A stretch of DNA of 64,000 nucleotides from an uncultured Pirellulaceae bacterium (GCA_937929805.1 CALFUT010000003.1:730-64729), one strand, 5' to 3'; positions 15,562 through 19,235 are shown, counted from the first letter of the stretch. Translations and numbers: made by a program. The notes: generated by a model not told the origin, from the letters alone.

Positions 15562-16212
15562 ATGCTTGTTTCTCACACTCACAAGTTTGTCTTCATCCAC
15601 ATCTACAAGACAGCTGGAACCAGCATCGCTAAAGCGCTTGCTCCGTACAATGTTTCTCCTTACAAACGCCGGGCCAGTCGGGTATTGAAACGACTTCGCC
15701 TTCCGTCCCCGTCGACTTGGAACACGGGATTGTCGGTAGAACATAAGACTGCCGTTGAAGCCCGCGATCGTCTGGGGAATGAGGTCTTTGACGAGTATTT
15801 TTCGTTCGCTTTCGTCAGGAACCCTTGGGACTGGCAGCTTTCTGTTTATCAACATGTCGTCCGAAACGAGAGGCATGCGTTGCACAAAAGAGTTGCCGAT
15901 CTTGCCAGTTTCGAAAACTACGTTCACTGGCTTTGTGATCAGTCCATTCAGCACCGCGACGATCGTTGTCAGATTGATTTTCTGCGGGATCTGTCAGGAA
16001 ACTTATTGGTCGACTTCGTCGGTCGATTTGAATCGTTGACAACCGACTTTGCGCATGTGTGTCGGCGGATTGGGGTCGAGTCCACGCTTCCAAAATTGAA
16101 CACCGCTGATCGCCGCGTCGATTATCGAACTTGCTACAGCGATCGCACAATTGACTTGATAGCGAACAAATACGCCGACGATATCCAAGCGTTTGGGTAT
16201 CGATTTGATTAG
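15562..16212 (+). CDS. Sulfotransferase family 2 protein
   Basis: 5'-PSB motif FIHIYKTAGTSI, 3'-PB motif FVRNPWDWQLSVY, and DFVGRFESL. Confidence 0.88.
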   Translation: MLVSHTHKFVFIHIYKTAGTSIAKALAPYNVSPYKRRASRVLKRLRLPSPSTWNTGLSVEHKTAVEARDRLGNEVFDEYFSFAFVRNPWDWQLSVYQHVVRNERHALHKRVADLASFENYVHWLCDQSIQHRDDRCQIDFLRDLSGNLLVDFVGRFESLTTDFAHVCRRIGVESTLPKLNTADRRVDYRTCYSDRTIDLIANKYADDIQAFGYRFD

Positions 16213-16438: not shown

Positions 16439-18022
16439 TTAGTTACATCCGCAATCTGCTACAGGAGCAGCTTCGCATCCGCATCCGCAATCTGCTGGAG
16501 CAGCGTCGCAGCAGCTGTTTGAGCGACATCCGCAACCTGCGAACAGGCCACGAATTCGAGCACCAAGACCACGAAGGCGACCACCAAGGCCACATCCGCA
16601 TCCAGCACCAGCTCCAGCACCACATCCACCAGCACCAAAGCCAGCAGCACCAGCACCAGCACCGTCGTATCCACCGAATCCGCCGTCGATTCCAGCAGCA
16701 CCGCCGCAAGCATCAACTGCTGGAGCAGCGTTGACAGTAACAGGAACCTGAGTCTCAACAACTCGTGGAACGCAGATGTTTACTGTGTAAGGAACTTGTG
16801 AAGCAACTTTCTTGCATCGCTGAACAGTCTTCATCTCAGTTACCTTGCGGCAAACTGTGAATGGAACCTGGCGAGTCTTAGTTTCGCAAACCATGCGTGT
16901 TGTGCAAACTGGAACCTGCTTAGATTGCTGCTCGCAAACCATGCGTGTTACAGTGTAGTTCTCAACTCGGCTCTTTGGCTCGCAAACCATGCGTGTTGTG
17001 CAGTAGTTGACAGTCTTAGTGACTGGCTCGCATACCATACGTGTTACGCAGTAGTTAACTTGCTTCGAACGAGTTTCGCACTTGTAAGAAGTGGTTGTGC
17101 AAGGAACTTGCTTGCTAACAGTTTCGCAAACCATGCGTGTGCATGTGTAAGGAACTTGCTTGCAAACCTTCTCGCAACGGTACTTCGTTACGCAAACTTG
17201 CTTAGTTTCGCATGATGGAACCCAAACCTTTTTGCATACGGTGCGATCAGGAGTCTTGCAACAAACCTTCTCGCAAGAACCTGGGCAGAATGAACGACAT
17301 CCTGTGCAAGGATCAGTTGACCAGCTGCCTGGTGTGCGTACTCGCTTTGAGTAGCTACGGCCAGGAACAACGCTAGTCTGAGTCTGCCAGCTTCCACCAC
17401 GAACAGTTACGTTCTTGGTTTCTGTGTAAGGAACGCGGATCGTGCTTGTAACAGTACGAGTCTTTGTTTCTGTGACAGGACGACGAACAACTGAGTTAAC
17501 AGTCTTCATAACAGTGTTAGTAACAGGAACGCGAACTGTGTAGTTTACAGTGCGTGTCTTCTGCTCAGTCACTGGACGACGAACGTACGAAGTGACTTCT
17601 TTCGAGTGCTGCTCTGTGACAGGTCGCTTAACAGTGTAGTTGATTGTACGCTGCTTAGTCTCTGTAACAGGTCGCTTGACTGTGTAGTTTACAGTCTTGT
17701 ACGTTGTCTCTTTGACGGGACGCTGTACAGTGTAGCTTTCTTCTCGCATTTGGGTCTCTCGAACCATGCGAGTGACAGGAACCTGAACGTTCTCGGTAAC
17801 TGTGTTGTACACAGTTCGGTAACGTGTTTCCTGACGGGTTTCGTTAACAACGCTTTTAACAGTCTTCATAACTGTGTAACTGCATCCACAATCGGATGCA
17901 GGAGCAGCTGCGGCAACTGCGTCGTAGCTTGCGCCACCACAACATTGGCCCCAGCTGAAGCTGGCTGACATGGCAGCAGCTGCGAATGCTGCTGAGGTCA
18001 ACAGACTTCTTACCAATTTCAT
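16439..18022 (-). CDS. Secreted Cys-rich YTV-repeat structural protein (planctomycete envelope type)
   Basis: GGAG SD before ATG 18022, signal peptide, repeated YTV(K/R)RPVTE and TRMVCE 16-mers, Gly/Cys-rich C-terminus. Strongly biased third-position codon usage typical of high expression. Confidence 0.88.
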   Translation of the reverse strand: MKLVRSLLTSAAFAAAAMSASFSWGQCCGGASYDAVAAAAPASDCGCSYTVMKTVKSVVNETRQETRYRTVYNTVTENVQVPVTRMVRETQMREESYTVQRPVKETTYKTVNYTVKRPVTETKQRTINYTVKRPVTEQHSKEVTSYVRRPVTEQKTRTVNYTVRVPVTNTVMKTVNSVVRRPVTETKTRTVTSTIRVPYTETKNVTVRGGSWQTQTSVVPGRSYSKRVRTPGSWSTDPCTGCRSFCPGSCEKVCCKTPDRTVCKKVWVPSCETKQVCVTKYRCEKVCKQVPYTCTRMVCETVSKQVPCTTTSYKCETRSKQVNYCVTRMVCEPVTKTVNYCTTRMVCEPKSRVENYTVTRMVCEQQSKQVPVCTTRMVCETKTRQVPFTVCRKVTEMKTVQRCKKVASQVPYTVNICVPRVVETQVPVTVNAAPAVDACGGAAGIDGGFGGYDGAGAGAAGFGAGGCGAGAGAGCGCGLGGRLRGLGARIRGLFAGCGCRSNSCCDAAPADCGCGCEAAPVADCGCN

Positions 18023-18075
18023 CTTAATGTCTCCAATAAACTGACGTTTCAAAACCTTGGAGGCAGCATCTGGTC

Positions 18076-18092
18076 TGGTGAAACATTCACCA
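18076..18092. promoter_or_regulatory. Perfect palindrome TGGTGAA-ACA-TTCACCA, Rex-operator-like
   Basis: 7-bp perfect arms 54 nt upstream of the YTV start, in the interval shared with divergent rex. The spacer is 3 bp rather than the canonical 4. Confidence 0.35.
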
Positions 18093-18575
18093 TGCCTACC
18101 GTTTCAAGACTTTTCCTTGCCTGGCAAAGCGCCGTTTCTATTTCGGGCCGGCTTCGCGACAGGGCTGGAATGTGTGGACAACTCCCGTTCATCCACCTTG
18201 CAAAGGTCCTCCTGACCGTTTGAGAATCGGTCACCGGTTAACTCTGGGATGAATAGCTAATTCAGATGGGTCAAGAAACGCAGAAATGATAGGCAGACTG
18301 TAGCGGTTATTCTGGTTGCCTTAGTCGGCGACTTCAAAACAACAGGGAAACAGATGCCACCAAGCTTTTCAGGCAGGGTAAACTGGCCGGTGCAACAAGA
18401 CATTAAGACGTAACGACTGCACAGCCCAAGCTTATTGCCCAGTCCGTTACGAATTTTCAAGTCGATCGCGTCCTATTAGAATTGCGACTGCGATCCAACT
18501 TGTTATGCGGTTCGGCAGAGCCATTAGGAACCGCGAAATCGGAGACGCCAAACATTCCAATTTGAGGGCGACGTA

Positions 18576-19235
18576 CTGACTACTCCTTCATCCGATTCTG
18601 AAGTACCGAAAGTGGTCATTGGCCGCCTTAGTCTTTACCTGCGCGAATTACAGTTAGTGCTGGGAGCCAACAAAGATACGATCAGCTCCTCAACATTGGC
18701 CCGCCGACTGGGGCTGACTGCGTCCCAAGTGCGAAAGGATTTCGCCTACTTTGGCCAATTTGGCTATCCGGGTGTTGGATACCGCTGTGACGAGCTAATT
18801 CAAAAGATCAGGTCTATTCTGGGAACCGAGCGAGTCTGGCCTGTCGCCTTGATCGGCTGTGGCAACCTTGGGCAGGCTTTATTGGGCTACCGAGGATTTG
18901 GGAATCAGGGATTTTCGGTCGTTGCCGCCTTCGACAAACAACCCGGCTTGATTGGCAAAAACTTCGAAGGCCTTACCGTTCAACACATGGACGAACTGGG
19001 CGACACGGCCAAATCTCGGAATATCGAGCTTGCGATTTTGGCGGTGCCTGCGTCGGCGGCGACTGAGGCAGCACAGGAAATTGTCGCGGCGGGAATTTCC
19101 GGGATCATGAATTTTGCCCCGGTGACCCTGAAACTGCCCCCCTCGGTCAGCAAAGTCGGGGTCGACTTGGCGATTGAGCTAGAACAACTGGCTTTCAGTG
19201 TGCTTGCCAAGCAACGCACGAAAGACCGGTTATAA
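18576..19235 (+). CDS. rex: Redox-sensing transcriptional repressor Rex
   Basis: VPKVVIGRLSLYLR, QVRKDFAYFGQFGYPGVGY, GCGNLGQAL, IMNFAP. Start uncertain (CTG 18576 versus GTG 18612). Confidence 0.95.
   Translation: MTTPSSDSEVPKVVIGRLSLYLRELQLVLGANKDTISSSTLARRLGLTASQVRKDFAYFGQFGYPGVGYRCDELIQKIRSILGTERVWPVALIGCGNLGQALLGYRGFGNQGFSVVAAFDKQPGLIGKNFEGLTVQHMDELGDTAKSRNIELAILAVPASAATEAAQEIVAAGISGIMNFAPVTLKLPPSVSKVGVDLAIELEQLAFSVLAKQRTKDRL

Follow-up and report, generated by a model that had tools for sequence, protein, structure and literature searches.

Members of the YTV protein family (PF07639) are the best-documented components of the rigid, detergent-resistant protein wall of planctomycetes, whose make-up and assembly have stood as a question since the 1980s. 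Walls prepared from R. baltica, G. obscuriglobus and T. immobilis have yielded YTV proteins (PMC8567305, PMC12673574, PMC3343278), in the studies of Hieu et al. 2008, Sagulenko et al. 2017 and Mahajan et al. 2020, respectively, as these are cited in PMC8567305 and PMC12673574; the proteins came from boiled-detergent preparations (PMC8567305) and were seen only in the most detergent-resistant fraction (PMC8567305, PMC12673574). In Planctopirus limnophila (P. limnophila), the few planctomycete-specific genes that are essential include one for a YTV protein (PMC10632474). No published description of a fold for YTV proteins was found in the YTV literature searched. Here we describe a YTV protein of 527 aa that is encoded on the reverse strand of a 64,000-nucleotide stretch of DNA (the window; CALFUT010000003.1:730-64729) from an uncultured Pirellulaceae bacterium (GCA_937929805.1). 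The gene belongs, as an ordinary member, to the known family of Cys-rich YTV proteins of planctomycete cell walls; what is new here is the structural reading of its product as a giant hairpin with two length-matched arms paired in register 479, meaning that the numbers of paired residues i and j sum to 479. With a probability of roughly 0.7, the YTV protein is a Sec-exported hairpin of this register that forms a single beta-ribbon and is cross-linked through its cysteines into a protein wall layer.

The protein matches the Pfam YTV model in seven stretches with 137 bits against a gathering cut-off of 21 (E=2e-40), a score that places its periodicity far above chance, and YTV is its sole Pfam match above the curated threshold; an NCBIfam scan of the protein gave no match. 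Its composition includes V 76, T 70, R 42, C 42 (8%) and G 40. Orthologue N-termini read MKLVRS or MKVVRS, and the start is therefore ATG 18022 and not the upstream TTG 18052. By six-frame search, 149 of 151 genomes from the same family have an orthologue, and none of 14 control genomes gave a YTV match. The relatives with organism names are Pirellulaceae, Mariniblastus, Thermoguttaceae, Gemmataceae or Planctomycetota metagenome-assembled genomes (MAGs), the exception being an Oscillospiraceae MAG with a weak match (E=1e-4) to the C-terminal tail only; judged by these relatives, the controls and the family genomes together, the YTV family is restricted to Planctomycetia. A second set of relatives, which consists of Pirellulaceae and Mariniblastus MAGs among the named genomes of GTDB, is 45-87% identical to the YTV protein. 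The N-termini of 58/58 orthologues consist of K/R, a hydrophobic run and AxA/SWAQ, followed by (C)CGxxSY, and this conserved signal-peptide-like start, together with cysteine at 42 of 527 positions, agrees with the exported, Cys-rich character of the family. The Pfam family, the signal peptide, the Cys/Pro/Thr/Val-rich units of 16 aa and the planctomycete-only distribution are all shared with the PF07639 wall proteins, and nothing sets the YTV protein apart from them; its Cys-free N-arm is a trait that it holds in common with most Pirellulaceae orthologues.

From the N to the C terminus, the protein consists of a signal peptide, a short Cys head, a Cys-free N-arm, a central piece, a Cys-rich C-arm and a tail of 97 residues (Table 1). 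A preliminary description, made from the DNA sequence alone, had listed prolines at residues 102, 118, 134, 150, 166, 182 and 198 of the N-arm and the cysteines of 'CE' pairs at 283, 299, 315, 331, 347, 363 and 379 of the C-arm, had noted the lack of Cys between residues 48 and 238, and had placed a centre at D237-P-C-T-G241, between P231GSW and P247GSC. All of these positions are exact in the translation, and the Cys residues that flank the Cys-free stretch are C47 and C239. The same description took the paired positions, which sum to 481 throughout, for a mirror symmetry. The sum is arithmetically true but is no evidence by itself, because any two seven-term progressions of equal period give constant pair sums, and the real register of i+j=479 differs from it by two residues. 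The proposed centre stands, as register 479 centres between C239 and T240, inside the named motif. The claim that the sequence itself is mirror-symmetric does not: both arms carry one 16-aa unit (YTVKRPVTETKQRTIN in the N-arm vs YCVTRMVCEPVTKTVN in the C-arm, both fitting Y-x-V-x-R-x-V-x-E) in the same N-to-C direction, and the symmetry of the sequence is therefore translational.

The two arms vary in length together. Arm lengths were taken between anchors, which were hidden Markov models (HMMs) of the conserved head, central piece and tail built from 17 orthologues. With both sets of relatives pooled, the arms are equal in 96 of the 103 orthologues, at about 120-265 residues, in line with the earlier expectation that the repeat numbers of the arms would co-vary. 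Within the family set (n=69), the offset of C-arm minus N-arm is that of the YTV protein in 57 and differs from it by no more than one residue in another 5 (62/69); these matching orthologues cover 13 distinct arm lengths (131-265 residues between anchors), and the central piece keeps a fixed length while the arms vary. Genomes with a non-modal arm length match in 29 of 34 cases, against 2.4 expected and a maximum of 9 in 10,000 shuffles, and assemblies of six contigs or fewer keep the equal-arm rule without exception (14/14). All 34 members of the second (GTDB) set have equal arms, 32 of them by the HMM anchors alone; the remaining two have arms of 221/222 residues and, precisely at the tip, 35 or 78 residues of inserted Gly/Ala/Cys low-complexity sequence. 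In the orthologues compared, insertions are accommodated at the hairpin loop and at no other place.

The order of the units points the same way. Some orthologues contain units of 14 residues, always two short of 16, and a loss of two residues does not disturb the alternate in/out facing of residues along a strand. In all of these cases (seven lineages), the short units of one arm are as far from the turn as those of the other. Read from the turn outward, both arms give 16, 16, 14, 16 in L017; 16, 16, 16, 16, 14, 16, 16 in L022 and L040; seven 16s and then 14 in L032; 16, 14, 16, 16, 16, 14, 16, 16, 16 in L074; 14, 16, 14, 14 in P0004; 16, 14, 16, 16, 16 in L105; and 16, 14, 16, 16 in L107. These lists agree between the arms only if both are counted from the turn, and the positions of the short units give a register of i+j of about 480 +/- 2 in the numbering of the YTV protein. 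Mirrored short units are what antiparallel residue-by-residue pairing would predict, and neither paired solenoids nor independent arrays would be expected to produce them.

Inter-arm mutual information with average-product correction (MI-APC) was calculated on an alignment of 56 orthologues (A2) and averaged along anti-diagonals. The mean MI-APC is 0.138 at i+j=479 (Z about 17), 0.087 at 477 and 0.091 at 481, compared with 0.024-0.031 for the even sums near the peak (478, 480, 482) and -0.003 +/- 0.008 for all other sums, with no echo at +/-16 from the peak. Diagonals 477, 479 and 481 hold 45 of the 100 strongest inter-arm pairs. A main diagonal accompanied by same-face neighbours at +/-2 is the signature of an antiparallel beta-ladder, and the register is therefore 479. 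Pro102 and its equivalents then stand opposite Met377 and its equivalents, the CE cysteines opposite K/R/Q at position 4 of the N-arm unit, and P231-G232 opposite P247-G248, with Arg and Glu of the two arms as diagonal neighbours. The top co-varying pairs include R196-C283, Q100-C379, K116-C363 and R148-C331, and Y224-C255 and T230-E251 co-vary at the tip.

AlphaFold2 was run twice, on A2 and on an alignment of 70 distant homologues (A1). The A1 model has continuous strands at residues 49-219 and 260-430, and the A2 model has strands at 48-219 and 260-431, a signal-peptide helix at 2-18 and a short helix at 486-490. At the tip, AlphaFold2 with DSSP gives short strand pairs at 223-229/250-256 and 233-236/243-246; all paired boundaries sum to 479, and the register of the models is that of the co-variation. 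The predicted local distance difference test score (pLDDT) of the arms lies for the most part at 70-87 and falls in two mirrored stretches, 130-150 and 325-345. The monomer model is one hairpin, neither a solenoid nor a compact fold, and the giant hairpin of two antiparallel strands of ~190 residues that was first proposed from the sequence is borne out by AlphaFold2, by the arm lengths, by the mirrored short units and by the co-variation; the stalk role proposed with it found no support. The matches of a Foldseek search of the PDB were all long-hairpin beta proteins (the phi29 knob and pore formers, lysenin and the aerolysin type among them), with template-modelling (TM) scores of 0.03-0.12, one match alone having E<=1e-3, and with a best TM of ~0.1 the protein therefore has no real structural relative in the PDB.

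The cysteines of the arms are distributed unevenly over the two faces of the ribbon. In the YTV protein, 17 of the 19 arm Cys are at odd residue numbers, which puts them on one face if the alternation is unbroken; it is the Thr-rich face, which also holds the N-arm prolines, and the opposite face presents Y/V with R/E/K and diagonal Arg-Glu pairs. Neither face is hydrophobic enough for a membrane barrel. C-arm Cys across the orthologues show the same bias (1337 on the same face vs 408 on the other). The preliminary description had Cys on one arm only, and this is true here and in most Pirellulaceae orthologues, which have 0-3 N-arm Cys, but not of one clade (L060, L072-L081), which has 14-31; N-arm Cys also occur in more distant YTV homologues. 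Coincidence of Cys with Cys in the clade that has them in both arms, examined as a guide to the register, gives several periodic peaks, none at delta -1. The arm Cys of the YTV protein are 6-10 residues apart along the strand and, with an N-arm that lacks Cys, have no partner across the hairpin; they are therefore free or linked to another chain. A further cluster, at residues 239-263, sits at the tip and wholly on its C-side, and both the tip cluster and the open-end clusters of head and tail are conserved.

We propose that the YTV protein would be exported by Sec and then fold back at its conserved 57-residue tip, with D237-PCTG-C242 as the loop, and that residues ~49-239 would pair antiparallel with ~240-430 at i+j=479. 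The product would be a two-stranded beta-ribbon with ~190 residues per arm, some ~60 nm long if straight (at ~3.3 A/residue). Its ~19 arm Cys and the clusters at the tip and open end would be likely sites of inter-chain disulfides, and these may tie the rods into the detergent-resistant proteinaceous wall layer of Planctomycetia, a wall-mesh function that we infer with the help of the wall literature cited above. Of this proposal, the analyses support the family membership, the hairpin topology with its register and the matched arms; the signal-peptide cleavage site, the length and shape of the rod and the inter-chain disulfides are, like the wall role, inferred.

Several observations weigh against this proposal. 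With a mean pLDDT of 64-66 and a predicted TM score (pTM) of 0.24, the models do not fix the global shape and length; what they predict is the topology. AlphaFold2 and the MI test share homologue alignments and are not fully independent of each other. A free two-stranded ribbon of 190 residues is without a solved precedent (best PDB TM ~0.1). Seven of the 69 family orthologues (L019, L023, L028, L054, L072, L073 and L077) have arms that are unequal by whole 16-aa units: four differ by +32 residues, one by +64 and two, both of one genus, by -16. All seven are from draft assemblies, and assembly collapse, considered as an explanation, is not specifically supported, as their longest exact DNA repeats, of 14-71 nt, are no longer than those of matched genes. 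Finally, 5 arm Cys are replaced in a ~87%-identical relative; this is how redundant cross-linking sites would behave, and not fixed structural pairs, and non-essential thiols would fit equally well.

Poor conservation of arm Cys between close relatives would also be expected if the hairpin is right and its cysteines are free thiols, metal ligands or a redox buffer, the rod then being a periplasmic spacer or ruler, an adhesin or a surface fibre. The arms are Cys-free in paralogues of the same genome and in homologues P0007-P0009, and the fold therefore has no need of arm Cys; moreover, the redox-sensing rex is a conserved divergent neighbour of the gene, and an arm length that is genetically fixed is what a ruler needs. 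We consider such a role unlikely, since YTV proteins are found in boiled-detergent wall preparations, in the most resistant fraction only (PMC8567305), since both end clusters of Cys are conserved, and since the 1337 vs 408 bias towards one face suggests a defined interface.

A second alternative keeps the antiparallel pairing but places it between chains, with the N-arm zipped to the C-arm of another molecule (a domain swap) in dimers or open-ended polymers, and what bears on it is the tip. The 57 aa from GGxW to VWVP are conserved and have symmetric kinks (PG/DP, PG/PG), W212 standing opposite W267, and the link HMM over the tip covers 79 columns in nearly all orthologues. The invariant or almost invariant residues are G210, W212 (in at least 90% of sequences), G221, W267 (fully invariant) and P269, and the turn motif [YF]DP[CA]T is seen again in distant YTV proteins. 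Matched arms, mirrored short units and co-variation at 479 are equally expected for pairing between chains, and co-variation is blind to the distinction; a swapped polymer would, in addition, directly account for the formation of a fibre or mesh, and a staggered one would more easily accommodate the seven orthologues with unequal arms. Closure within the chain is favoured by the conserved, symmetric tip and by inserts that occur at the tip only. The tip's conservation, fixed length and internal symmetry (W212/W267, PG/PG and the DPCTGC loop), the co-varying pairs that reach up to the loop (Y224-C255, T230-E251), the closed hairpin in both AlphaFold2 monomer runs and the inserts placed exactly at the loop leave the domain swap about as improbable as the non-cross-linking roles.

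That there is no giant hairpin, and that the halves fold alone as tandem 16-aa units of two sub-types (a beta-meander, a small solenoid or a cross-beta stack) with the AlphaFold2 hairpin as a default output, would suit the same repeat running in the same direction in both arms, the merely arithmetical symmetry at 481, the pTM of 0.24 and the lack of a solved look-alike, but is very improbable, as it predicts neither equal arms in 96/103 orthologues nor two-residue shortenings matched at mirrored levels (the rise per coil of a solenoid is independent of coil length, and matched 14-aa units are therefore not required in one) nor a parity-dependent MI peak on a single anti-diagonal without a +/-16 echo.

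For the cross-linked hairpin, a wider reading is offered tentatively, and it may well go too far: YTV proteins could be an undescribed fibrous class of single-chain, repeat-built beta-ribbon rods (~45-100 nm in the family) of genetically set length, which in Pirellulaceae would be stitched face to face by a one-face row of unpaired Cys on one arm, and which would form the load-bearing wall of Planctomycetia and account for the essential status of the gene. On this reading, rod length would be genetically set because a unit gained or lost in one arm must have its counterpart at the same level of the other. If true, the architecture would be an unusual one, a lone beta-ribbon of two strands that greatly exceeds in length those of the PDB, and the gene a clear case of two repeat arrays forced to expand and contract together. 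A defined register and a one-sided row of Cys make the question of the planctomycete wall experimentally concrete.

Table 1. Parts of the YTV gene and neighbouring features, in window coordinates (residue numbers refer to the YTV protein).
Feature	Position	Strand	Basis or remarks
Whole coding sequence of the YTV protein	16439..18022	(-)	527 aa and stop; PF07639, E=2e-40; orthologues in 149/151 family genomes
Signal peptide, residues 1-26 (MKLVRSLLTSAAFAAAAMSASFSWGQ), putative cleavage site	17945..18022	(-)	hydrophobic h-region; AlphaFold2 helix 2-18
N-terminal Cys head, residues 27-48 (CCGGASY...DCGCS), open end of hairpin	17879..17944	(-)	Cys 27, 28, 45, 47
N-arm, residues 49-208: head segment and seven 16-aa Pro units (YTVxRPVTExKxRTVN), without Cys	17399..17878	(-)	AlphaFold2 continuous strand from 48/49; length equal to C-arm
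Hairpin tip, residues 209-269 (GGSW...VWVP)	17216..17398	(-)	link HMM, DSSP, conservation
Turn, residues 237-242 (DPCTGC)	17297..17314	(-)	centre of register 479
C-arm, residues 270-430: Cys-bearing 16-aa units (NYCVTRMVCExxxKxV) and tail segment VPYTV..CVPRVVETQVPVTV	16733..17215	(-)	AlphaFold2 strand to 430/431
C-terminal Gly/Ala/Cys-rich tail, residues 431-527, ending CGCN	16442..16732	(-)	pLDDT <50
Short basic amphipathic motif GGRLRGLGARIRGLFAG, residues 480-496	16535..16585	(-)	between CGCG clusters of the tail
Intergenic region, YTV gene to rex	18023..18611		
Perfect palindrome TGGTGAA-ACA-TTCACCA	18076..18092		between YTV gene and rex
rex (redox-sensing repressor)	18612..19235	(+)	divergent, upstream of YTV gene
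Sulfotransferase-like open reading frame (MLVSHTHKFVFIHIYKTAGTSIAKAL...)	15562..16212	(+)	just downstream of YTV gene, opposite strand

At the open end of the hairpin, the N-terminal Cys head has low pLDDT and no strand in AlphaFold2, and the C-terminal tail sits beside it. The CGCN end and the basic motif of the tail recur in close orthologues, where the motif takes the similar form RLRGL..R.RGLF; AlphaFold2 places its small helix (486-490) here, and GGRLRGLGARIRGLFAG could be a membrane-binding or sorting element. At the other end, the tip (PGSW..DPCTG..PGSC) is replaced or expanded in L014, L108 and L115 by 10-78 residues of Gly/Ala/Leu/Cys low complexity, with the arms still matched, and these inserts resemble the C-terminal tail (L014 on a smaller scale). 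The genome has two further YTV paralogues, located at G000 contig C21 (locus L002) and contig C29 (locus L010). One is longer than 710 aa and has 14-residue units, Cys-free arms and a long central Gly/Cys-rich insert followed by RRVWVP; the other, of 558 aa, is Cys-poor and acidic and has a long disordered Ser/Thr/acidic tail.

Next to the YTV gene, rex also adjoins the orthologous gene in 36 of the 70 other loci scanned (tblastn, flanks of only ~1.5 kb), and the pairing is therefore conserved across many genera. The palindrome between the two genes resembles a Rex box and was considered as a conserved regulator site; this was rejected, as GTGAA-N2-5-TTCAC is absent upstream of 69/69 other orthologues scanned. 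The sulfotransferase-like open reading frame was seen beside the YTV gene in the source genome only, within the short flanks scanned.

Among known systems, the pore-forming toxins and the phage phi29 tail knob are like the YTV model in having unusually long two-stranded antiparallel hairpins; theirs are shorter by a factor of 5-10 and owe their stability to the oligomeric barrels that enclose them. Membership of the beta-pore-forming toxin or aerolysin-like class was considered and rejected, the whole-fold likeness being too low (Foldseek TM 0.03-0.12) and the Pfam match being to YTV only. Chlamydial OmcB and OmcA are Cys-rich envelope proteins of the Planctomycetes-Verrucomicrobia-Chlamydiae (PVC) superphylum that stiffen the envelope through disulfide cross-links. 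They are analogous to the function proposed for the YTV protein, and the likeness is functional only: OmcB has no sequence or domain relation to it (Pfam gives YTV only and NCBIfam nothing) and is not a two-arm repeat hairpin. In the stalk of streptococcal antigen I/II, an A-region alpha-helix is wound with a P-region polyproline II (PPII) helix over tens of nm, with matched repeat numbers. As in the YTV model, the chain folds back and an N-terminal repeat array pairs over its full length with a C-terminal one; the two are not homologous, and the antigen I/II stalk joins an alpha-helix to a PPII helix, whereas the YTV model joins two beta-strands by backbone hydrogen bonds.

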